Source of the DNA: Gemmatimonadota bacterium
Lineage (GTDB): Bacteria; Gemmatimonadota; Gemmatimonadetes; Palauibacterales; Palauibacteraceae
Direction of reading: 5' to 3'
DNA length: 37,664 nt
Assembly (NCBI GenBank): GCA_039590285.1
Contig: JBDHFS010000009.1
Coordinates: 1 to 37,664, forward strand
Shown: one piece after another, positions 13,820 through 24,093 of the stretch
Layout of the letters: each line of letters begins with the position of its first letter
Position numbering within the stretch: the first letter of the stretch is position 1
Translations under genes and position numbers: made by a program
Notes under the pieces: model-generated
The model's input: only the letters and a program-made list of their open reading frames with translations
The model's database searches: none
What the model was told of the DNA's origin: nothing

Positions 13820-13881
13820 CGCAGAGCCTTGCGTTACGGGTTCCCTGCCCGGCCGATAAGAGTATCGACCTACAACTATGA

Positions 13882-13913
13882 ACATATATATATCTGAATA
13901 TATGTATTGTCAA
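13882..13913 (-). promoter_or_regulatory. Sigma70-type promoter of the ArsR-RND operon overlapped by an 8-8-8 inverted repeat (probable ArsR operator)
   Basis: Minus strand TTGACA (13913-13908), 17-nt spacer, TATATA (13890-13885). ACATATAT (13882-13889) is the reverse complement of ATATATGT (13898-13905). Strongly AT-rich patch in GC-rich DNA. Confidence 0.75.
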
Positions 13914-14162
13914 GAGTGCCCTATCCCTGTCACCTTGGAAATGGCCTGAAACCGGCGTCCGGAAGACATATCGGGGGTCGCAACGCGCGCGATCGTCCTT
14001 CACCCTCTATATTGTTTGATCGGTTTCGTGTTGCCGATGACGGAAACCCCGTTGTTGCCGGCACCTGTCCTGTCGGGTCCCCGCCCCGAGTTCACCGCTT
14101 TGCGGAATACGGATCTGGTGTCGGCAAAGCTGAGCCCGACCTGATGGAGGGAGTACGGCAGG

Positions 14163-14558
14163 ATGGGACGGCACACCGACTGTCTGATGGCGTTGCGGGG
14201 CGCGAGCCTGGTCTGTCTTCTCAGCCTCGCCATCGGCTCCGCGTGCACGCCGGATGCTCCACAGGGGGGTCTTCCGACGCACCCGTCAGACCGATTCTCG
14301 GTATCGCTGGAGTGGGATGCCCCGGATGTCGATGAAATGGGCCGACCACTCACGGACCTGGCAGGCTACCGTCTCTACTTTTCCCTCACGAGCCCACCCG
14401 ACGGTCCCGACGGAAACCGCATCGAGGTGGGGACCGATACCCGTTTCACGGTTACAGGTCTCGCTGCGGGTGAGTACTACTTCGGAGTCACCGCCCTTGA
14501 CGCCGCGGGAAACGAGAGTGGACTCTCCGAGCTGCTGATGTTCGAGGTGGGGCGGTGA
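14163..14558 (+). CDS. Small lipoprotein with a single fibronectin type III-like domain (cassette 1)
   Basis: Hydrophobic signal ending LAIGSAC; SVSLEWDAP..D..GRPLTDLAGYRLY...FTVTGL..GEYYFGVTALD..GNES FN3 pattern. GGAGG upstream. Confidence 0.85.
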   Translation: MGRHTDCLMALRGASLVCLLSLAIGSACTPDAPQGGLPTHPSDRFSVSLEWDAPDVDEMGRPLTDLAGYRLYFSLTSPPDGPDGNRIEVGTDTRFTVTGLAAGEYYFGVTALDAAGNESGLSELLMFEVGR

Positions 14559-16345
14559 GGGGACCGCGGGGACGGGTGTCGGTTCTGTCGTGGGCCGCGG
14601 TCAGCGTCCTGATGCTCTTCGCGTGGCCGCGCCCGTCGCTCGGCCAGCAGGCCATGCTCGTACCCTCGCCAACCAACCTCAGCGCAGGGGCAGTAGACAA
14701 CTCGCGTATCGACCTGTCATGGAGGGCGGCCTCGTCCGGAAATATCGCGACCTACCGCGTCTACTACGACGACGACCGCTTCATAGCGAGCGTTTCCGGG
14801 TCCACGACTTCGTATTCAGACACCGGTCTGGAGCCGTGGACGGTCTATCGATATTACGTGACGGCGGTCCAACAGAACGGTAACGAGAGCGGTCCGAGCA
14901 ATGTGGCCTCGGCACGTACACTGGACGGGACCCCGCCGTCCGCTCCAAGGGATCTGCAGGGTCAGCCGATCAGCGACTCCGAGGTCTCTCTGGTGTGGAA
15001 CGGGGCCAGCGACCCCGAGTCGGGTGTCGCCGGGTACGTCATCTTCAGGGATGGACGCGAGATCGACCGAACCTCGAGCCCCGGCTTCGGGGACTCGGGA
15101 CTGGAGGCTGACCGTCAGTACTCCTACGAGGTTACAGCGGTCAACGGAGAGGGATTGGAGGGGGCAGCGGCCGGCCCGGTTCAGGTCCGAACGCTCTCGG
15201 ACGAGGCGCCGGAACCACCGACGGAAGTCCGGGCGACGGCCGTGGAGTCGAACGCCGTGGAATTGGAGTGGAACGCGCCGCCGGGAGACGAAGATATCGA
15301 CGGGTACCGGGTCTATAGGGACGGAGAATCAGTGGGAACGACATCCCAGCGTCGTCATCGGGATTCTGGTTTGCAACCGTTCACGACGTACCTGTACCAC
15401 GTGACATCGATCGGAGAGGATGGTGATGAGAGCGCGCCCAGCTCCCCGCTTGAGGTCATGACCCTGGACGGTTCGGCACCGACGAAGCCCGAAGGCCTGA
15501 TCGCGAGGGCCGTGGGCAGCGAGCGAATCGACCTGGCGTGGAACGCGGCCCAGGACCCGGAGTCCGGGATAGCGTTCTACCGGATCATGCGGAATGGTGA
15601 CGAGGTCGGCACGACGGAGGGCACGACGTATCAGGACTTCGGACTCGAATCGGGCACCACGTACGAGTACCGGGTCTCAGCGGTCAACGGGAGCGGCCTG
15701 GAGGGCGCCGCCAGCGAGCCCGCCGGGGCGACGACCCTGGACGGGAGCGGCCCGACGAAGCCGACGGACCTCACGGCCACGGCGATCGGGACGGATCGAA
15801 TCGAGCTGAGCTGGTCGCCATCGACCGACCCCGAGACGGGCGTCGCCCTGTACCGTGTCTTTCGCGACGGGGCCGAGGTGGCCGCAGCCACGAGTGCGGC
15901 CTATACGGATTCAGGCCTGGCGCCGAATACGGAATACGAGTATCGGGTCTCCGCGGTCAACGGGGAGGGACTCGAAAGCGACCTCAGCGAACCCGCCTCA
16001 GCCGTCACACTGGACGAGGGCGGTCCACCGGCGCCCGCCGATCTACTGGCACAGGCCGTTGGCCCCGATCAGGTAAACCTGACCTGGACAGCACCGGACG
16101 CGACGGACACCGAGATCGTCAGCTACAACGTGTATCGTGACGGCAGTTTCGTCGGGAATGTCGTCGCCACGGTCTTCGCCGATGCCGGCCTCTCGCCCGG
16201 GACGACGTATCGTTACGCGGTGGCCAGCGTGAACGATGAGGGCGAGGAGGGCGAACGCAGCGGCGAAGCACTGGCCACGACGTTCCCGGCCGATGACCTG
16301 ATCCCCCCGGCTCCACCGACGAGACTGAGGGTCGTGGGGCCGTAG
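14555..16345 (+). CDS. Secreted protein with six tandem FN3 domains and a conserved C-terminal PPAPPTRLRVV tail
   Basis: Signal peptide; six roughly 90-aa repeats (P..L.A......I.L.W...Y.V.R.G...Y.D.GL.P.T.Y.Y.V.AV..G.E); no catalytic domain seen; GTGA overlap with the upstream lipoprotein gene. Confidence 0.9.
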   Translation: MRGPRGRVSVLSWAAVSVLMLFAWPRPSLGQQAMLVPSPTNLSAGAVDNSRIDLSWRAASSGNIATYRVYYDDDRFIASVSGSTTSYSDTGLEPWTVYRYYVTAVQQNGNESGPSNVASARTLDGTPPSAPRDLQGQPISDSEVSLVWNGASDPESGVAGYVIFRDGREIDRTSSPGFGDSGLEADRQYSYEVTAVNGEGLEGAAAGPVQVRTLSDEAPEPPTEVRATAVESNAVELEWNAPPGDEDIDGYRVYRDGESVGTTSQRRHRDSGLQPFTTYLYHVTSIGEDGDESAPSSPLEVMTLDGSAPTKPEGLIARAVGSERIDLAWNAAQDPESGIAFYRIMRNGDEVGTTEGTTYQDFGLESGTTYEYRVSAVNGSGLEGAASEPAGATTLDGSGPTKPTDLTATAIGTDRIELSWSPSTDPETGVALYRVFRDGAEVAAATSAAYTDSGLAPNTEYEYRVSAVNGEGLESDLSEPASAVTLDEGGPPAPADLLAQAVGPDQVNLTWTAPDATDTEIVSYNVYRDGSFVGNVVATVFADAGLSPGTTYRYAVASVNDEGEEGERSGEALATTFPADDLIPPAPPTRLRVVGP

Positions 16346-16407
16346 AAGAGAGCGCCGTCAGACCTTTCCTCCCTGAAGGCCTTTCAGGTTAGCCCCCCAC
16401 TGCTGCG

Positions 16408-16423
16408 TGGCAGGAACCTTGCT
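16408..16423 (+). promoter_or_regulatory. Putative sigma54 (-24/-12) promoter for cassette 2
   Basis: TGGCAGGAACCTTGCT versus consensus TGGCACG-N4-TTGCW: one mismatch, exact GG-N10-GC spacing, intergenic, about 117 nt before ATG 16540. Confidence 0.65.
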
Positions 16424-16539
16424 TCCATTGGTACCCGTTCCTGCCGGCCCCCGGTCGCGGCCAAGGCCTCGACTGGCGGCGATTGCGGCGAAATAGGGGC
16501 GCCCGGCGTGTCGCAGCGGGCAAACGAAGTACGGCTTCC

Positions 16540-16926
16540 ATGTGGCATGACCGCAACAGCAGGCTCAGAGGGACCGCCTTCGCCGGAGCCATCGCGCTGA
16601 TTCTGGCATCGGGATGCACCCCGGACGGACCGGGCGACGGGGTGCCTACGCATCCGAGCGACAGGTACTCGATAACGCTCGAGTGGGATGCGCCCACGAC
16701 CGATGCCGTGGGCCGGCCGCTGGACGACCTGGCCGGCTATCGCCTCTACTATTCCGAGGATTCAGCGCCCGAGAGCGGCAGCGAGATGATCGACGTCGGG
16801 GACGTGACGCGCTTCACCGTGGAAGGGCTCGACGCCGGCACTTATGTGTTCGCCGTGACGGCCCTGGATGAGGACGGGAACGAAAGCGACTTCTCCGATC
16901 CGCTGCCGGTGGAGGTCGGACCGTGA
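16540..16926 (+). CDS. Small FN3 lipoprotein (cassette 2), paralog of 14163..14558
   Basis: MWHDRNSRLRG...ALILASGC lipobox; shares CTPD.P..G.PTHPSDR.S..LEWDAP..D..GRPL.DLAGYRLY...GNES with the first copy. Confidence 0.87.
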   Translation: MWHDRNSRLRGTAFAGAIALILASGCTPDGPGDGVPTHPSDRYSITLEWDAPTTDAVGRPLDDLAGYRLYYSEDSAPESGSEMIDVGDVTRFTVEGLDAGTYVFAVTALDEDGNESDFSDPLPVEVGP

Positions 16927-19259
16927 GCGGGCCACATGACGGACTCGTGAGGACCTCGCGCTTCCGGTTCGCGGTCGTGCTCCTGGCGTCGACCGCGATG
17001 GGGCTCGGGAGCCCGAATGCAGCGCATGCCCAGCAGCCTCCGACGAACGTCACGGCGACCGCCGCCAGTTCCTCGCGAATCGACCTCGCGTGGACGGCAT
17101 CCTCGAGCACCTTCGTGTCGGGATACCGCATCTACTACACGAACGGCACGCTGCTCGGAGAGGTTGGACCGTCCACGCTCTCTTTCTCGGACACCGGCCT
17201 GACAGCCATGACGCAGTACGACTACTACGTCACGATGTTCAACTTCGCCGGCGAGAGCGGCCCGAGCAACACGGCCTCCGCCGTCACGCTCGACCCCACC
17301 CCGCCTTCCACGCCGGCCAACCTCCAGGGCACAGCGGTCAGCACGACGGAAATCGATCTCTCGTGGAATGCAGCTTCGGATCCGGAGACCGGAATCCAGG
17401 ATTACGTCGTGTACAGGGATGGGCTGGAGGTAGCCCGCACGGGGACGAACCTGAGCTACCGGGATTCGGGCCTCACTCCTGATACCCAGTACCAGTACAG
17501 GGTCTCGGCCGTGAACGGTGACGCAATCGAGGGCGCTACCAGCAGTCCTGTGAACGTGAGGACCCTCCCGCCGGAGCCACCCCCGCCGCCCACGAGCCTG
17601 ACGGCCACGACGGTGAGCGATTCGGAGATCGACCTGTCGTGGACAGCCCCCAGCACAGGTGACGTGATCGGCTACCGTGTGTACAGAAACGGCAACCCGG
17701 TGGACAACACCGCGGGGACATCCTACCGGGACTCGGGCCTGCAAGGATTCACGACTTACACCTACACGGTGACGGCGCTCGACGGCGAGGGCCTGGAAAG
17801 CGAGCCAAGCCAACCGGCGCAGGCGACCACCCTGGACGGTACGCCTCCGACTCAACCCCAGAGCCTCTCTGCCACGGCCTCGGGCGCGACCACCATACAG
17901 CTGTCGTGGTCCCCGTCATCCGACCCCGAGACCGGTGTGGCCGTGTACGTCATCTACCGTGGGGGCGTTGAGATCACCCAGACCACCGGAACCTCGTACC
18001 TGGATACAGGCCTCAGTCCGGCCACGACTTATGGGTACCGTGTCTCGGCGGTCAACGGACAGGGACTGGAAGGCCAACGGAGCGCCCAGGCCTCCGCGAC
18101 GACGTTCGACGCAACGGGCCCCACGACGCCGGAGAACCTGACGGCCACGGCCGTGGGCACGGATCGCATCGATCTCGACTGGTCGCCGTCGAGCGACCCG
18201 GAGACGGGCATCGCCGGGTATCGGATCTACCGTAATGGAGTGCTGGTGGCCACCAGCAGCCAGAGTTCGTACAGCGACAGCGGACTCGCTCCGGCGACCG
18301 AGTACGTGTACCAGGTTTCGGCGGTAAATGGTCAGGGTCTCGAGAGCGATCGCAGCGATTCGGTGTCCGTCACAACGGGTGACGCCACGGCTCCCACAAC
18401 ACCACAGGACCTGGGCGCCGTGGCAGTCGGGACGGAGAGAATCGATCTCTCCTGGACGGCTTCACAGGATCCGGAGACGGGCGTCGCGGTGTATCGAGTC
18501 TTCCGGGACGGATCGGAGATCGGCACCACTACCCAGACCGTGTACCAGGACGACGGCCTCGCACCGGCGACGACGTACGAGTACAACGTGGTGGCGGTGA
18601 ACGGCGACGGGCTGGAAAGCGAAGCGAGCAACACGGCATCGGCGACGACCTTGGATGGAACAGGTCCATCGACTCCGACCGATCTCTCCGCGACGGCGGC
18701 CGGAACGGACCGCATCGACCTGACCTGGGCGGCTGCGGAGGACCCCGAAACCGGCATCGCTCTTTACAGGATCTTCCGGGACGGAGCCCTGATCGGGACG
18801 ACAGATCAGACCAACTACCAGGACACAGGCCTCAGCCCGGCGACGACGTACGAGTATCGTGTGTCGGCGGTGAACGGCGAGGGCCTGGAGAGCGGTCTCA
18901 GCGAGCCGGCCTCGGCCACCACGCTGGACGGTACGGGACCCACCGCCCCGACGGATCTGACGGCGGAGCCCGTCAGCCAGACGCAGATCAACCTCGCCTG
19001 GACAGCCTCCGAGGACCCAGAGAGCGGCGTGGTCAGCTATAATGTGTACCGCGACAACGCCTTGGTCGGAAGCGTGCCGGGAACGTCGTTCGCCGACACG
19101 GGGCTCGATGTGGGGACGTCCTACAACTACTCGGTCTCGGCCGTCAACGGTGAAGGGATCGAGGGAGACAGGAGCGACGGCGTGACGGCTTCCACATTCC
19201 CATCGGAAGATCAGATACCGCCGGCACCGCCCACGGGTCTCAGGGTGGTGCAGCCATGA
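16923..19259 (+). CDS. Secreted protein with eight tandem FN3 domains and a conserved C-terminal PPAPPTGLRVV tail
   Basis: Signal peptide ending AAHA-QQ; eight FN3 repeats, six with a DPE[T/S]G loop; GTGA overlap with the upstream lipoprotein gene. Confidence 0.9.
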   Translation: MSGPHDGLVRTSRFRFAVVLLASTAMGLGSPNAAHAQQPPTNVTATAASSSRIDLAWTASSSTFVSGYRIYYTNGTLLGEVGPSTLSFSDTGLTAMTQYDYYVTMFNFAGESGPSNTASAVTLDPTPPSTPANLQGTAVSTTEIDLSWNAASDPETGIQDYVVYRDGLEVARTGTNLSYRDSGLTPDTQYQYRVSAVNGDAIEGATSSPVNVRTLPPEPPPPPTSLTATTVSDSEIDLSWTAPSTGDVIGYRVYRNGNPVDNTAGTSYRDSGLQGFTTYTYTVTALDGEGLESEPSQPAQATTLDGTPPTQPQSLSATASGATTIQLSWSPSSDPETGVAVYVIYRGGVEITQTTGTSYLDTGLSPATTYGYRVSAVNGQGLEGQRSAQASATTFDATGPTTPENLTATAVGTDRIDLDWSPSSDPETGIAGYRIYRNGVLVATSSQSSYSDSGLAPATEYVYQVSAVNGQGLESDRSDSVSVTTGDATAPTTPQDLGAVAVGTERIDLSWTASQDPETGVAVYRVFRDGSEIGTTTQTVYQDDGLAPATTYEYNVVAVNGDGLESEASNTASATTLDGTGPSTPTDLSATAAGTDRIDLTWAAAEDPETGIALYRIFRDGALIGTTDQTNYQDTGLSPATTYEYRVSAVNGEGLESGLSEPASATTLDGTGPTAPTDLTAEPVSQTQINLAWTASEDPESGVVSYNVYRDNALVGSVPGTSFADTGLDVGTSYNYSVSAVNGEGIEGDRSDGVTASTFPSEDQIPPAPPTGLRVVQP

Positions 19260-21367
19260 GCCGGAGACAGCGCGGGCCCTGGTCGGCAGGAATAGGCCAC
19301 GCGGAGCAACTGCTGTTTTGCGCTTCGCTGGCGGCCGGGCTGGTATTCGCGGTCCCCGACCCGGCCTCGGCCCAGGACACGGGTCTCAGCAAGAGCGAGC
19401 TCGTCCGTCTCGTGGTGTCGAGCACGACCCCGGATGAGAAGGTGCAGACGGTCAGCCGGCGCTGTCTCAGCTTCGTTCCGACGGAGGGCGATTGGAGTGA
19501 TCTGGCCAACCTCGGCGCCAGCCCCGAGCTGGTGGCCGCCGCGCAGGAGTGCGCCCGCGCCGCTCAGGCCGTGCGGATCCGCCTCACCGCCACGGATATC
19601 ACGGTTCGCGCCGGAGACTCCACGGGTGTAACGGTCACACTCTCCCAAGCCGGCGATCCTCTTCAGGGTCAGACCGTCACGCTGTCGGGGTCTGGTGGCG
19701 CGGGCGCCGGTGTGCGCCTTTCGCGCACGACAGACGGAAGGGGGCGTGCAAACTTCCGCCTTCCGGCCGGCACGGTGCTGGGCGCGGCCCGCTATACGGT
19801 TGCCGCTTCCAACACATCGCTGGATGGACCGACCCGGATCACAGTCAGGACGGCGGCCGCCGCTCCGGCGCGAGCGGTTCCCGAGCCAGCGTCGCTCGAG
19901 CTGGACGCCGGCGGTGACCCGCCGGAAGTGAGCGTCTCCGTCGAGGACCGCTTCGGCAATCCGGTTTCCGGCGCGGACCTGGATCTCGCCGCGGGATCCG
20001 GGACCGCGCCCGTGATCGCCTCCGCTACGACAGACGCGACAGGTGCAGCAAGTCTGACCCTGGCAGACGGCGCAATGCCCGAGGAAGACGCGACCTGGGA
20101 GCTCCGGAGCGGCGACGCCGTCATCGCCACGTTGCCGGTGCGGATTCGAGACGCCGCCCCGGCGCCCGCTGCCGAAGTGGGCGTGGCCGGAGCCGCCGCG
20201 GCGGCGGGCGGAGATCGCCCCCCAGGCGAGTCCGCCGTCGACGCAGCGATCAGAGACGGCCGGGACAGCCTCGAGGACGAAGACTACGTCGCGGCGGAGA
20301 CCCTGTTCCGGGATGCCCTTCGCCAATCGCCACGGCGAAGCGACGCACAGAAAGGGCTCGCGGCGTCACTGCTGGCGCAGAATCGGATAGAAGAAGCCAT
20401 CACGTGGTATGAAGTGGCCACCCGGCAGGCTCCCGAGGATGCGGACGCCTGGTCGGGTCTCGGGCAGGCGTACGCTGCCGCGGGCCGGAGGGACGATGCC
20501 GCCGCGGCGCTCGCCCGCGCGCAGCAGATCGATCCGACGCGCGAGGAGCTGACCACCGAGATCGCCGATCTTGGCCGACCGCCTGGATCCGCCACAGGCG
20601 CCGCCTGGGGAGGCGGAACCTACGACAACGCCGAGTCGGGTGGAATCCGCCGGGCCGAGATCGATGTGCGTTTCTCCCCGGCACTGGCCGCGCGGGTCGG
20701 CTGGGATCGCTCGCTGGCTCCGCACAGCCCCGAGCTTGTCAGAGGACCGGACGAATGGGACTCCTGGTTCGCCGGAGCGTCCTTCTCGTACGGGACCGGC
20801 GGGCGGCTGGAGACGGCTCTCGACTTTGGCCAGCGAAGCCAGGGATTCGGAGAGCTCGCCGAGGGATCGGAGCTCAAGCAGAACGTCTATCGACTCACTC
20901 AGACGATCCGGTTCTCGGACGACCCGAGCGGCTCGATGATCAAGATCGGCGGATACCTGGGGCGTTGGTTCGACCGGGACGACTGGGTCGTGTTCAGCCG
21001 ATTCAAGGCCCCCATCGGGGGAGATCTCAGCTTCCTGGCTTCCGGCAGCTACGGCGAGACGATCGGAACGAACTGGGTGGAGACCGGCAGGCACGCCGAC
21101 AAGGACGGCCGGGTATACGCCGGCGTAGCCTGGGAGAACGAAAAAGGCCTCGCTTTGCAGCCGGTCATAGGCGTGGGGCGGATCGATAGTGAGCGATCGG
21201 ACGAGCTCACGGGGACCCTGCTCGATCTTCTGCTCGAGGGAGCGGTTCCCGTCACGCGGGGAGCTGACATCCGGCTCTTCTTCAGGCACCAGAGACCGCC
21301 CGGAAGCGAGGCGTTCACGGTCATCGCCCTCGGGTTCGGCCTGAAAGTGGGCTGGGCTGGAGGCTGA
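19256..21367 (+). CDS. Exported multidomain protein: small helical N-domain, two Ig-like domains, TPR repeats and a probable C-terminal outer-membrane beta-barrel
   Basis: Signal ending ASA-QD; Big_1-like motifs (TTDGRGRANF, VEDRFGNPVSG, TTDATGAASL); TPRs (AETLFRDAL..SP...DAQKGLA; AP.DADAWSGLGQAY); last roughly 260 aa has alternating amphipathic strands ending FGLKVGW. ATGA overlap with the FN3 gene. Confidence 0.72.
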   Translation: MSRRQRGPWSAGIGHAEQLLFCASLAAGLVFAVPDPASAQDTGLSKSELVRLVVSSTTPDEKVQTVSRRCLSFVPTEGDWSDLANLGASPELVAAAQECARAAQAVRIRLTATDITVRAGDSTGVTVTLSQAGDPLQGQTVTLSGSGGAGAGVRLSRTTDGRGRANFRLPAGTVLGAARYTVAASNTSLDGPTRITVRTAAAAPARAVPEPASLELDAGGDPPEVSVSVEDRFGNPVSGADLDLAAGSGTAPVIASATTDATGAASLTLADGAMPEEDATWELRSGDAVIATLPVRIRDAAPAPAAEVGVAGAAAAAGGDRPPGESAVDAAIRDGRDSLEDEDYVAAETLFRDALRQSPRRSDAQKGLAASLLAQNRIEEAITWYEVATRQAPEDADAWSGLGQAYAAAGRRDDAAAALARAQQIDPTREELTTEIADLGRPPGSATGAAWGGGTYDNAESGGIRRAEIDVRFSPALAARVGWDRSLAPHSPELVRGPDEWDSWFAGASFSYGTGGRLETALDFGQRSQGFGELAEGSELKQNVYRLTQTIRFSDDPSGSMIKIGGYLGRWFDRDDWVVFSRFKAPIGGDLSFLASGSYGETIGTNWVETGRHADKDGRVYAGVAWENEKGLALQPVIGVGRIDSERSDELTGTLLDLLLEGAVPVTRGADIRLFFRHQRPPGSEAFTVIALGFGLKVGWAGG

Positions 21368-21572
21368 ACCGCGGCGGCCGCCAGGCCTCCCGTGCAGTCG
21401 AAAGCGCAGTCTCACAGGTGGAACCTCTGCCCGGAACCCGGTTCGCTAAACCCCCGGGGCAAGCCGGGTGTTCTTCGGCTACATTGCCTCGGCTCGATGC
21501 GAGCCGTTCTGCCCACCGCCTGCCGCGGTGAGCGGTGTTCATCACAGCCATCCCACAACTCGGCGAGGAAAC

Positions 21573-24001
21573 ATGAGAAGTCTTCCTTCGTTGTTGGTCA
21601 TTATCCTGGCCGGCCTCCTGGCCGCCGGCTGCGCGTCGGCCCGCTCACAGGAGGCGCCTGGCTCGGGCCCGAAGCCCTCGGATGACGAGCCCAGGAGCTA
21701 TTCCGAGCTGATCACCGAAGAGGCGGTGTCGGACTCCGGCCTGTTCCTGGTCCACAACATCAAGGACACGCTGTACTACGAGATTCCTCTCCATCTGCTC
21801 GACCGGGAGATGTTGCTGGTATCCAGGCGGGCGCGGACGGCGCAGGACCTGGGGTACGGCGGGATGAAGAACAACACGCAGTCCGTGCGGTGGCAGAAGA
21901 AGCAGGACAAGGTGCTGCTCCGAATCGTGTCGTACGAGAACGTCGCGGCCGATTCGCTTCCCATCTACGAGGCCGTGAAGAACTCGAACTTCGAACCGAT
22001 CGTCGCCGCCTTCGACATCGAGGCGTGGAACCCCGACAGCTCCGCCGTGCTGATCGAGACGACGAAGCTGTTCACCGAGGACGTGCCGATCCTGGGCCTT
22101 CCGAGCTACATGCGCGAAAGCTATGAAGTTTCCAGCCTGGACAAGGACCGATCGTACATCGAGTGGACGAAGAGCTTCCCGGAGAATATCGAGGTGCGCC
22201 ACGTCCTCACGTACAACGCCAAGGAACCGCCCTCCAATTCGTCCACCGGAAGCATCTCCGTGGAGATGAACCAGTCGATGGTGCTGCTTCCGGAAGTACC
22301 GATGCAACCGCGCCTGTTCGACGAACGCGTCGGCTTCTTCAGTGTGGACCAGGTAGACTACGGACTTTCGGACCACAAGACGGTCGAGCGCACCTACATC
22401 ACGCGCTACCGCCTGGAGCCGGCCGATACGGCGGCGTTCCTGAGGGGTGAGCTCGTGGATCCCGTCGAGCCGATCGTCTACTGGATCGATCCGGCGACAC
22501 CGGAGAAGTGGCGGCCCTACCTCAAAGCGGGAGTGGAAGACTGGCAGCAGGCGTTCGAGCACGCCGGTTTCCGGAACGCGATCATCGCCATGGACCCGCC
22601 GACACCGGAGGAGGACCCGGAATTCAGTCCCGAGGACATACGCTACTCGGTCATCCGGTGGTTCCCGTCCGAGGTACAGAACGCCTTCGGACCGCATGTA
22701 CACGATCCGCGCTCGGGCGAGATCCTGGAGAGTGACATCGGCTGGTTTCACAACGTCGCGAACCTGCTGCGAAACTGGTACCTGATCCAGACGGCCGCCG
22801 CCAATCCGGAGGCGCGCGCCGTCAAGTTCGACGACGACGTGATGGGCAAGCTGATCCGGTTCGTATCGGCTCACGAGGTGGGACACACGCTGGGTCTCCC
22901 GCACAACATGAAGGCGAGCTCGGCCTATCCCGTCGACTCGCTGCGGGCTCCCGGGTTCGTGTGCCGGATGGGTGTCGCCCCCTCGATCATGGATTACGCG
23001 CGCTTCAACTACGTGGCGCAGCCCGAAGACGACGGGGCGTGCTTCGATCCGCGGGTGGGACCCTACGATGACTATTCGATCATGTGGGGTTACCGACCCA
23101 TCCTCGGAGCCGACTCGCCCGACGCCGAGAAGGAGACCCTGAACGCCTGGATTCTCGAGCGGGAGGACAATCCCACCTACTGGTTCGGCGATCCGAGCGC
23201 CGTCGATCGGAAGCCGGGGAGCTCGGAATCGCGAATCTGCAGCGAATCCTGCCGAGCCTCATGGACTGGACGTACGAAGAGGGTGAGGACTGGTCGGAGC
23301 TGGAGGAGCTGTACAGCCAGGTCACGGCCCAGTGGAATCGCTACATGGGTCACGTGGTCGCCAATATCGGTGGCGTCGTGCGCACGCGCAGGCGGCAGGG
23401 ACAGGAAGGCGTCGTTTACGAGCCGGTGCCCGTCGAGAATCAGAGACGGGCCATGCAGTTCGTTTCCGGCGAGGCGTTCACGCCGCCTACCTGGATGATC
23501 AACGAGGAGATCCTCGGCCGCATCGAGAACGTCGGCACGGTCGAACGAATGCGGCGTCTGCAGGTTGGAGTGTTGAACAACGTACTCCAGGCGGGCCGTA
23601 TGCAACGACTCATCGAGGCCGAGGCACGGTTCGGAGACGCCACCTACGGTCTGACCGAGATGACGGCCGATGTCCGGCGCGCCGTCTGGAGCGAGCTGGG
23701 CACCGGAGAGTCGATCGACACGTACCGACGGAATCTCCAGCGCGGCTATCTGGAGCGAATGGATGAGCTGATGAACGGTGACGGCCCCGCCCCTCCAACG
23801 TTCAACTTCCCGGGTCTCGACGAGTATTTCACCAACGTCAACCTGTCGCAGTCCGATATCCGGGCCGTGGTACGCGGCGAGCTGGAGACTCTGAGCCGAG
23901 AGATCCGGAATCGGCTGGCTTCGGGTCCCGACCGCATGACTCGACTGCACCTTCAGGATGCGCTGGCCCGCATCGATGACATCCTGAACCCCGAGGAGTA
24001 A
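21573..24001 (+). pseudogene. Zinc-dependent metzincin metalloprotease lipoprotein (DUF5117/DUF5118/DUF4953-type), split by a frameshift near 23208
   Basis: Lipobox LAAGC after GAGG SD; HEVGHTLGLPH zinc motif and SIMDY Met-turn in the first frame. Plausible protein sequence switches frame after FGDPSAVD and continues EAGELGIANLQRI...RRNLQRGYL to TAA at 24001. May be an assembly error rather than a true pseudogene. Confidence 0.8.
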
Positions 24002-24038
24002 GAAGAAGACGGAGGCCGCCTTCACGGCGGCCTCCGTC
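24000..24038 (-). terminator. Intrinsic terminator hairpin between convergent genes
   Basis: Perfect 13-bp stem GACGGAGGCCGCC-TTCAC-GGCGGCCTCCGTC (24008-24038), followed by TTCTTCTT on the minus strand. No U-tract on the plus strand. Confidence 0.8.
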
Positions 24039-24093
24039 CAGCCTGCTCTTGGTCCGGACGGCCCCGGCCGTTCCGGGGCGCCACCTCATTCGG

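Follow-up and report, generated by a model that had tools for sequence, protein, structure and literature searches.

This locus raises the question of why two predicted secreted rods built of FN3 repeats both end in what looks like the first strand (strand A) of a further repeat. On the basis of genome comparisons and two structure predictors, we hold with moderate confidence that each tail acts in trans as a donor strand, which would complete the split FN3 domain of a small lipoprotein and tether the rod by its C-terminus. The features concerned, in the window (the whole stretch of DNA that was analysed, 37,664 nucleotides), are the following.

13880..13915, no strand assigned: AT-rich block, candidate promoter/operator of the operon, some 270 nt before the first gene
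Near 14008-14018, no strand assigned: second TATATT box, upstream of the first gene
14163..14558, + strand: lipoFN3-1, predicted lipoprotein of 131 aa with a hydrophobic leader, Cys28 and a single FN3 starting at strand B
14555..16345, + strand: polyFN3-1, predicted secreted rod of 596 aa, 6 FN3 repeats and tail
16292..16342, + strand: tail 1, DDLIPPAPPTRLRVVGP, 17 residues followed by TGA, proposed donor strand
16540..16926, + strand: lipoFN3-2, predicted lipoprotein of 128 aa with an invariant Cys26 and an FN3 without strand A
16923..19259, + strand: polyFN3-2, predicted secreted rod of 778 aa, 8 FN3 repeats and tail
19206..19256, + strand: tail 2, EDQIPPAPPTGLRVVQP, 17 residues followed by TGA, proposed donor strand
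19256..21367, + strand: outer-membrane protein of 703 aa with a signal peptide, a small N-terminal domain, 2 Big_1 Ig-like domains, TPR and a C-terminal barrel
20573..21364, + strand: beta-barrel domain of the 703-aa protein, 14 strands (AlphaFold pLDDT 89.6)

The stop of lipoFN3-1 overlaps the start of polyFN3-1 (GTGA), and the start of polyFN3-2 overlaps the stop of lipoFN3-2, for which the database start is the ATG at 16540 and the ORF opens with a TTG at 16483. The AT-rich block is kept in 5 distinct orthologous loci, within a genome of 66% GC, and a sigma-70 scan gave nothing beyond shuffles on the + strand. Both rods have signal-peptide-like N-termini and exceed the gathering score of Pfam fn3 (PF00041), with 226.9 bits over 6 stretches in polyFN3-1 and 286.5 bits over 8 in polyFN3-2.

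Translation of positions 16232-16345 and 19146-19259 gave ...TTFPADDLIPPAPPTRLRVVGP and ...STFPSEDQIPPAPPTGLRVVQP as the ends of polyFN3-1 and polyFN3-2, respectively, both with the pattern D-x-I-PPAPPT-x-LRVV-x-P. The tails are identical at 13 of 17 positions, as originally predicted, and a P-x-x-[LV] segment, read in repeat 1 of both rods, bears out the further claim that this repeat already owns a strand A, as does every other repeat of the two proteins. The search of the proteome for the C-terminal motif, which had been suggested as a check, returned 2 of the 23,069 stop-to-stop ORFs (at least 80 aa) of the 3.54-Mb genome, namely polyFN3-1 and polyFN3-2. In the 145 genomes of the order, the degenerate DNA pattern for PPA[PA]P[TS]xLR## gave 35 matches, distributed over 21 genomes, against one match for the reversed-pattern control; 34 of the 35 belong to FN3-repeat ORFs, at 1-3 residues from the C-terminus, the sole exception being a non-FN3 ORF (L042). 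Moreover, in 41 FN3-rich ORFs the strict motif was found 38 times at the terminus and never internally, among 265 PxxPxx[LVIF] linkers. The motif is specific to the terminus.

The tail is also constant in its genomic neighbour. Starting from the tail, a lipoFN3 gene (~128 aa, one FN3) was found directly upstream of all 26 evaluable tail-bearing ORFs, i.e., those with upstream DNA in the locus, 9 others being cut by contig ends or a frameshift. Starting from the lipoprotein, a profile search gave 32 Gemmatimonadota loci (22 with a complete downstream ORF, 9 cut and one, L080, ambiguous), and every one of the 22 complete ORFs ends in the tail; 15 of these contigs overlap the tail-found set and 7 are new. 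This pairing, which like the sequence features and the conservation is read directly from the genomes, persists through changes of architecture. The genus carries three paralogous lipoprotein-tail pairs; in another genus the lipoprotein is paired with a 4-repeat rod (L049), and in another family a 724-aa non-rod cargo ending IPPAPPRGLRVGN stands behind a small lipoFN3 (L051). One genome has a single frame that runs from the lipoprotein domain through 7 repeats to the tail (L050), and here the tether would be redundant. Genome G002, of the same genus and 96% complete, contains neither a match to the tail pattern nor one to lipoFN3. Class-specific features were seen in the lipoprotein and tail pairs, and duplication of whole pairs would account for them equally well. 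Outside the phylum, two Bdellovibrionales MAGs encode a polysaccharide lyase ending ...PKAPTNLQVQ and a Big_7/Ig/Laminin_G_3 protein ending ...PLPPTGLRLSGGAS, each directly downstream of a membrane-anchored protein with an FN3 from strand B.

The lipoFN3 family comprises 166 proteins at E <= 1e-5, and lipoFN3-1 matches its HMM with E = 1.6e-52. With Pfam fn3 (cutoff 25 bits), lipoFN3-2 scored 32.2 bits and lipoFN3-1 22 bits, under the cutoff, over profile positions 9-76 of 84; the lipoproteins match from profile position 9-11 onwards, the rod repeats from position 2. In 56 lipoFN3 homologues the Cys is invariant and follows a hydrophobic stretch ending [AS][GAS]C. In the AlphaFold model of mature lipoFN3-2 (56-row alignment, pLDDT 76.9), residues 1-17 are unstructured and 6 strands are predicted, with no strand A, so that the seven strands of an FN3 (A, B, C, C', E, F, G) are not all contained in one chain. 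Solved FN3 domains cover only residues 16-103 of the model, fibcon (3teu_A) aligning from its residue 14, and the best match gave Z 11.1 and rmsd 1.7 over 81 residues. The lipoprotein N-terminus has the invariant form CxPDxPxxGxPTHPxD, which the donor-strand model leaves unexplained. Other proteins of the same FN3 subtype, marked by a long B-C loop and W-D-A-P-T...D-L-A-G-Y (e.g., P0161), have almost no space for a strand A between tandem repeats; its absence may therefore be a stable trait of the subtype rather than a gap awaiting filling.

When mature lipoFN3-2 was co-folded with the last polyFN3-2 repeat and its tail, ipSAE values of 0.65, 0.64 and 0.65 were obtained, against 0.00 for the best of 3 controls with unrelated proteins; of 80 solved complexes 58 attain the ipSAE mark, compared with 2 of 110 mismatched pairs, and these counts are approximate here because the alignments were our own. 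The runs share at least 94% of contacts, with a partner pLDDT of at least 80. On the side of the rod fragment, the confident interface is confined to residues 100-113, that is, the tail, which is modelled against strand B of the lipoprotein in the position of strand A; the best contact pairs are L110-W24, R111-E23/L22, V112-L22/T21, P107-A83/V81 and P106-S91. Both the missing strand and this docking geometry belong to predicted models, and a pass in the co-fold speaks for likeness, not for binding: solved structures include many intact FN3 domains, and the predictor may reassemble a split one because it has learned the complete fold. Taken together, the two-way pairing, the strand-A-less model and the co-fold support the original prediction that the tail may complete the FN3 of the partner lipoprotein and tether the rod.

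According to the donor-strand reading, each unit of the operon would encode a lipoprotein with FN3 strands B-G and then a rod, exported by Sec and made of 6 or 8 complete FN3; the final 12-14 residues of the rod (IPPAPPTxLRVV) would stand alone as a strand A. Once exported, the tail would slot along strand B of the lipoprotein FN3, with its L and first V facing the core beside the conserved Trp, its R opposite the conserved Glu of strand B, and PPAPP packing onto strands F/G and the long B-C loop, and a seven-stranded FN3 would be completed in trans. The product would be an (n+1)-domain rod, in which the membrane-proximal domain, split over two polypeptides, would bear the lipid anchor; the rod would thus be anchored via its C-terminus, which is impossible by an N-terminal lipid anchor alone. 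We infer from these data that binding would occur in the cell and at a membrane, and that the Big_1/TPR/barrel protein may serve in assembly, in export or as the other attachment point of the rod. At ~3.5 nm per FN3, the completed 7- and 9-domain rods would be ~25-30 nm long; more speculatively, they could bridge the lipid anchor and the barrel protein, as an envelope spacer or a surface layer.

The barrel protein could itself be the reader of the tail, which would then be a C-terminal export or sorting signal, similar to those that type IX and type XI secretion pass to barrels of the FadL-like or DUF560 type, with the lipoprotein otherwise employed. The barrel gene overlaps the stop of polyFN3-2 (ATGA), an orthologue of it comes after the tail-bearing gene in 13 of the loci found via the lipoprotein as well as in L024, L033, L038-L040, L049 and L050, and G002 lacks it (best E = 4.5e-8) together with the tail pattern and lipoFN3. 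The best structural matches of the barrel model are 14-strand barrels: a FadL homologue (Z 19.2, rmsd 3.1 over 232 residues), OmpG (Z 17.9; TMq 0.65-0.67 in Foldseek) and the T9SS translocon chain 6h3i_F (Z 17.2, rmsd 3.1 over 219 residues), the Z values being from VIA-align. By contrast, the third paralogous pair, L034-L036 and L051 have tail and lipoprotein with no barrel gene in the examined flank. The DUF560 profile matched 0 of 26 barrel homologues (E up to 10), and an export signal would explain neither the invariant lipoprotein neighbour nor its lack of strand A. A sorting domain of the T9SS CTD (~80 aa) or PEP-CTERM type was also considered; these and related families gave no Pfam or NCBIfam match, and there is no room for a transmembrane helix, because the proteins end 1-3 residues past the motif. 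We regard export as an unlikely function of the tail, one that is compatible with the donor-strand reading, as the barrel protein could read the tail first and the lipoprotein dock it afterwards.

The doubt attached to the co-fold, and the possible stability of the FN3 subtype without strand A, would also fit a tail that augments the edge strand of some other partner, such as a Big_1 domain, a periplasmic chaperone or the cell wall, the docking to the lipoprotein being an artefact of FN3-likeness. This would leave unexplained the strict two-way pairing with the lipoprotein across genera, families and cargo types, and we consider it quite improbable.

The original prediction had also allowed that the tail swaps into another subunit to polymerise. 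In such self-assembly it would insert into an FN3 that belongs to another rod, or to another unit of lipoprotein and rod, and build dimers, filaments or a lattice in a pilin-like manner. For the two-gene form this part did not hold up well, since each repeat retains its own strand A; the sole acceptor without one is a separate lipoprotein that has no tail, and assembly would therefore stop at a 1:1 complex. For the rare fused form it may still apply: in L050 (Gemmatimonadota) and in L115 and L116 (Bdellovibrionales MAG), a strand-A-less FN3 is N-terminal and the C-terminus is strand-A-like, so that head-to-tail insertion would polymerise them. However, a search for longer, fused homologues gave one protein, an apparent chimera, and self-assembly seems to us very unlikely as the function of the tail.

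Absence of the tail from orthologues had been named among the results that would speak against the original prediction; instead, the tail is retained in all the evaluable ones, with synonymous codon turnover, and its invariant L and R are each written with 4 codons in the orthologous loci. In the 22 loci found via the lipoprotein alone, the mean pairwise identity along the tail columns IPPAPPTGLRVV was 0.7, 0.9, 0.9, 0.8, 0.4, 0.9, 0.9, 0.6, 0.9, 0.9, 0.4 and 0.5, and along the last repeat's own strand-A stretch GPTAPTNLAAEAV 0.6, 0.9, 0.3, 0.2, 0.9, 0.2, 0.4, 0.6, 0.2, 0.7, 0.2, 0.2 and 0.1. Thus, the tail is better conserved than the genuine strand A of the last repeat and, as judged from the sequences, it is under selection at the protein level. 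That it resembles the linker and strand A of the repeats might suggest a neutral remnant of an out-of-register repeat duplication, but this is contradicted by the conservation data and made highly improbable by the codon turnover, by the LR## signature in 0 of 265 internal linkers and by the tail behind non-FN3 domains (L051).

To our knowledge, diderm bacteria have no general route for fixing secreted proteins to a membrane by the C-terminus; lipid anchors are N-terminal and sortases occur mainly in monoderms. If the donor-strand reading is correct, a split FN3, with the lipoprotein as acceptor and a 12-residue tail as donor, would give C-terminal anchoring by two genes with no chaperone or usher, and a family of small FN3 lipoproteins that are so far 'hypothetical' would gain a role. 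Donor-strand complementation would no longer be confined to pilus polymerisation but would include 1:1 anchoring and the FN3 fold. More tentatively, and with less confidence than we place in the locus itself, this might be a natural chaperone-free tag/catcher of diderms, in which a membrane-anchored strand-A-less FN3 captures any cargo ending PxxPxxL-x-hydrophobic, beyond rods and Gemmatimonadota.

In PMC6615685, donor-strand complementation is described as the completion of an Ig-like domain that misses an edge strand by a strand of another polypeptide, with a stable non-covalent link. Chaperone-usher pili (FimA/PapA type) share with our model the strand-deficient Ig-like domain completed by another polypeptide; however, their missing strand is the C-terminal G and their donor an N-terminal extension, whereas here strand A, at the N-terminus, would be missing and the donor is a C-terminal tail. 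Their subunits polymerise and need a PapD-like chaperone and an usher, whereas a 1:1 anchor-cargo pair is expected here and Pfam gave neither family in a scan of 19 ORFs around the operon, so that we do not assign the locus to this class. The type V pili of Bacteroidota (FimA/Mfa1) have a lipoprotein acceptor whose N-terminal strand is absent when mature, and the donor is the C-terminal strand of the incoming protein. This is the likeness with our pair, but there a protease removes the strand, the subunits polymerise and the fold has two domains, whereas here the strand is genetically absent, donor and acceptor differ and the fold is FN3; the operon proteins gave no match to FimA/Mfa families in Pfam or NCBIfam, and we do not place them among type V pili. 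Slam/type XI outer-membrane proteins combine TPR with a 14-strand DUF560 barrel, and the 703-aa protein has the same TPR-then-barrel layout, according to TPR families and the AlphaFold model, beside lipoprotein genes; it differs in its extra Big_1 domains, in the DUF560 result and in the type of cargo. Among the structural matches listed for its barrel there is no solved Slam chain, which speaks neither for nor against a kinship of fold. In myomesin:obscurin-like-1 (PDB 5fm5) and titin Z1Z2-telethonin, a strand of one rod-like Ig/FN3 protein joins the sheet of another protein and cross-links the rods; domains are likewise completed in trans between structural rods, although these systems are eukaryotic, cytoplasmic and without a lipid anchor or a dedicated gene pair. 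Finally, in engineered split-domain tags (SpyTag/SpyCatcher; split FN3 or GFP strands) a short peptide restores a strand-deleted domain, SpyTag through a covalent isopeptide in the CnaB2 domain. The tail and its lipoprotein, with no sign of a covalent bond, would instead be a natural, small and non-covalent tag/acceptor pair for protein engineering.

The tail, i.e., the C-terminal motif D-x-I-PPAPPT-x-LRVV-x-P, closes both rods encoded in the following row of genes:

14163-14558, + strand: lipoFN3-1, a small predicted lipoprotein with a single FN3 domain
14555-16345, + strand: polyFN3-1, a secreted rod with 6 Pfam fn3 stretches
16540-16926, + strand: lipoFN3-2, the second such lipoprotein
16923-19259, + strand: polyFN3-2, the second rod, with 8 fn3 stretches
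19256-21367, + strand: a 703-aa protein, here called the barrel protein

Translation placed the tails at the very end of the rods, as originally predicted (DDLIPPAPPTRLRVVGP at 16292-16345 and EDQIPPAPPTGLRVVQP at 19206-19259, each span including the stop codon). Both rods show a signal-peptide-like N-terminus and, in every repeat, the first included, a strand-A segment of their own, so that the tail is indeed a surplus strand. The check for the C-terminal motif across the proteome retrieved 2 of the 23,069 ORFs of the genome, and both were these rods. Written as a degenerate DNA pattern, the motif gave 35 matches in 21 of the 145 genomes of the order, all from one family, with 1 match for the reversed pattern used as control; 34 of the 35 lay 1-3 residues ahead of the stop in an ORF with FN3 repeats. 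Across 41 ORFs rich in FN3, with 265 linkers between repeats, the strict motif was terminal 38 times and internal 0 times; thus, the tail is distinguished by the signature PPA[PA]P[TS]xLR plus two hydrophobic residues, which is absent from ordinary strand-A segments. Moreover, in a collection assembled independently of the tail, its columns were better conserved than the real strand A of the last repeat, and its invariant Pro, Leu and Arg were each encoded by several synonymous codons, indicating selection on the peptide rather than on the DNA. We conclude that the tail is neither a chance occurrence nor a duplication scar. In one assembly (L018) the rod gene is frameshifted, and the frame breaks directly after ...IPPAPPTGLR.

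A lipoFN3 gene was found directly upstream of all the tail-bearing ORFs for which the upstream region was available (26/26; 9 further ORFs, truncated at contig ends or by a frameshift, are outside this count). The reverse search, performed with the lipoprotein profile on one genome per species, yielded 32 Gemmatimonadota loci, 15 of those with a complete downstream ORF being on contigs already reached via the tail or the barrel gene and 7 being new. The original prediction named absence of the tail from orthologues among the results that would count against it, and all of these complete ORFs carry the tail (22/22); the other loci were cut (9) or, in one case (L080), had 30 more residues after the motif TPPAPPNALRVVQ, in a region with evident frameshifts. 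The genus holds three paralogous lipoFN3-tail pairs, whose lipoproteins and tails vary by class; the third pair is found at a separate genomic site, where its neighbours are unrelated genes and there is no barrel gene. In the window's genome, the third lipoFN3 gene (G000:C311:2883-3266, locus L052) sits right at the edge of a 3.3-kb contig, so the expected tail-bearing partner was not assembled. The covariation between tail and lipoprotein variants was rejected as independent evidence, since the differences track the three paralogous lineages.

More distant pairs were also observed. Locus L049 encodes a 4-repeat rod with the C-terminus PPAPPVRLRIVPSP. In a sister family (L051:2590-5123, + strand), a small lipoFN3 precedes a 724-aa non-rod protein ending in IPPAPPRGLRVGN; this protein comprises an N-terminal domain of unknown type, which also occurs in the next gene, two FN3 and another domain. 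A glycosyltransferase gene is nearby. In one Gemmatimonadota MAG (L050:2731-5376, + strand), a single open frame spans the FN3 of the lipoprotein, 7 repeats and the tail (IPPSPPTRLRLAP), and a signal-peptide-like hydrophobic stretch is still present at the junction; this is either a gene fusion or the result of a lost stop codon. A search for fused, hence longer, lipoprotein homologues gave 1 match, an apparent chimera of 306 aa.

The lipoprotein Cys is invariant in 56 homologues and is followed by the invariant segment CxPDxPxxGxPTHPxD, with strand B (...YSVTLEWDAP) directly after it. The Pfam fn3 profile starts at position 9-11 in the lipoproteins, compared to position 2 in the rod repeats. 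The AlphaFold model of lipoFN3 (56-row alignment, pLDDT 76.9) has six strands and leaves residues 1-17 without structure; solved FN3 domains superpose on residues 16-103 only (best Z 11.1, rmsd 1.7 over 81 residues), and the alignment of fibcon to the model begins at fibcon residue 14. As modelled, the lipoprotein FN3 appears to lack strand A. The 17-residue linker from the Cys to strand B (16615-16665 in lipoFN3-2 and 14244-14294 in lipoFN3-1), with the pattern CxP[DE]xPxxGxPTHPxD, is invariant or nearly so in the 56 homologues, yet it is unstructured in the model and outside the modelled interface; the start of the signal peptide, MW[HR][DE]R, is also conserved. Searching 1.84 billion representatives with the profile of the lipoprotein alignment produced 20,992 matches at E <= 0.001 and 115 at E <= 1e-30, the top 150 being mostly giant multi-FN3 proteins, which score via summed repeats. 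The 10 sequences read among these 150 offered no clear case of a tail in cis, and raised the caveat that strand A may be dispensable for the stability of this FN3 subtype. The ESM Atlas returned generic small FN3 clusters only, and a sequence search of the PDB using the profile of the lipoprotein gave nothing beyond generic FN3, such as titin.

The original prediction had called for tail and lipoprotein to be folded together. Mature lipoFN3-2, modelled with the last repeat of polyFN3-2 including the tail, gave ipSAE values of 0.65, 0.64 and 0.65, against 0.00 for the best of 3 unrelated control proteins. Of 80 solved complexes, 58 reach the mark adopted, as do 2 of 110 mismatched pairs; these counts are only rough here because we used our own alignments. 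At least 94% of the contacts were common to the runs, with a partner pLDDT of at least 80, and the confident interface on the rod fragment covered residues 100-113, exactly D-Q-I-P-P-A-P-P-T-G-L-R-V-V. The closest pairs were L110-W24, R111-E23/L22, V112-L22/T21, P107-A83/V81 and P106-S91. The modelled tail adopts the geometry of a canonical strand A, antiparallel to strand B: its Leu and Val face the core, next to the conserved Trp, and its proline segment covers strands F/G together with the long B-C loop. In the distant pairs L049, L050 and L051, read by eye, the R111/E23 pairing is not kept, the E being lost while the R stays. Because so many of the structures solved to date contain a complete FN3 domain, the predictor may have reconstructed a familiar fold; the co-fold supports binding of the tail to lipoFN3 but falls short of proof.

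On this basis, we suggest that the tail acts as a donor strand A. Sec would export both proteins, the lipoprotein would be lipidated, and the rod tail would insert as strand A, completing the lipoprotein FN3 and giving a rod of (n+1) domains held at the membrane by its C-terminal end. In the canonical FN3 topology, strand A runs from one pole of the domain to the pole where strand B begins. The donor strand would thus run from the pole at which the rod arrives to that at which strand B starts and from which the 17-residue linker leads to the lipid, so that the split domain could continue the axis of the rod towards the membrane. Against this model we count that the FN3 subtype may not need strand A for stability, that the model offers no explanation for the invariant PTHP segment, and that the fused form in L050 would make a pure tether redundant.

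The barrel protein contains two Big_1 domains and TPR repeats, and its last 264 residues are predicted to form 14 antiparallel strands (pLDDT 89.6), which superpose best on 14-strand outer-membrane barrels.

Matches to the predicted barrel
OmpG: TMq 0.65-0.67; Z 17.9
FadL homologue: Z 19.2
Bacteroidota BAM-complex chain: Z 18.1
T9SS translocon chain: Z 17.2

None of the 26 barrel homologues matched DUF560 (Slam). In most main loci the barrel gene follows the tail-bearing gene, and one near-complete genome of the genus lacks all three of barrel orthologue, tail and lipoprotein; the barrel protein probably belongs to the system, in which it may be an assembly factor, an exporter or the other attachment point of the rod. 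A second Big_1/TPR/barrel paralogue of about 830 aa (G000:C105:9584-11950, locus L026; about 33% identity) has counterparts in most genomes of the genus, with no FN3 genes nearby and neighbours with SH3 and JAB-like domains.

The tail could also be read by the barrel protein as an export signal, which fits the gene order and does not exclude docking to the lipoprotein. Another rival reading is that the tail binds a different partner. Self-assembly through the tail is plausible only for the fused forms. A neutral remnant is contradicted by the conservation data.

As for the surroundings of the gene row, the genome is 86% complete with 66% GC, and the homologues in the databases carry the names Gemmatimonadota, Gemmatimonadales or 'Candidatus Benthicola'. 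Four-base overlaps at three gene junctions (GTGA, GTGA and ATGA) suggest translational coupling. An RND efflux operon lies upstream, on the opposite strand. Also upstream of lipoFN3-1, an AT-rich block (13880-13915, ...ATATCTGAATATATGTATTGTCAAGAGT) and a TATATT box (about 14008-14018), kept in 5 distinct orthologous loci in a 66% GC genome, are a candidate promoter or operator; signals from a promoter/terminator scan of the window were no higher than in shuffles, and an Rfam scan of the window, this block included, gave 0 matches. Downstream, a DUF5118/DUF5117/DUF4953 met-zincin gene (21468-24001, + strand) occupies two frames, 21468-23498 and 23084-24001; in four genomes of the genus the orthologue is one uninterrupted ORF (606-845 aa), and the split reflects either a frameshift or an error in the assembly. 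The gene is followed by a strong palindrome at 24005-24039. The zincin gene was rejected as a member of the system, since among the genus loci long enough to show it only 4 have it downstream, and no locus of another genus does.

Returning to the tail as a proposed donor strand, similar arrangements were found outside Gemmatimonadota. In two Bdellovibrionales MAGs (L090:1994-4273 and L103:6806-11602), membrane-anchored proteins have an FN3 that opens with strand B, immediately preceded by a lipobox, a membrane anchor or a Cys-rich module. The cargo genes that follow encode a polysaccharide lyase (PF14099) and a Big_7/Ig/Laminin_G_3 protein, with the strand-A-like ends ...PKAPTNLQVQ and ...PLPPTGLRLSGGAS, respectively, just before the stop. 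A loose form of the tail pattern occurs in 5 of 9,714 ORFs of the window's genome and in 2 of 650 ORFs of 29 non-Gemmatimonadota loci, where both are the gene directly downstream. In one of these MAGs, two further proteins (L115:2912-4654 and L116:3-1883) carry in one chain an FN3 without strand A near the N-terminus and a tail-like end (...VPAPPSAVALRLEP and ...TPAAPTALAAQ, again at the stop), possibly allowing completion in cis or head-to-tail. These cases, a small sample picked by eye, suggest that tag and acceptor form a module that is general beyond Gemmatimonadota.

A literature search outside subscription journals retrieved papers on pili, but no description of an FN3 donor strand that docks on a lipoprotein or of this Gemmatimonadota system. 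Donor-strand complementation in chaperone-usher and in type V pili works alike, with no family membership here; family scans of the operon-region proteins found no chaperone, usher or pilin families. An Ig domain is reportedly completed in trans in the myomesin:obscurin-like-1 complex, which again works alike, the window's system not being a member. The window's system is set apart by the FN3 fold, by strand A as the apparently missing strand, by the C-terminal position of the proposed donor and by the proposed 1:1 pairing of anchor and cargo.
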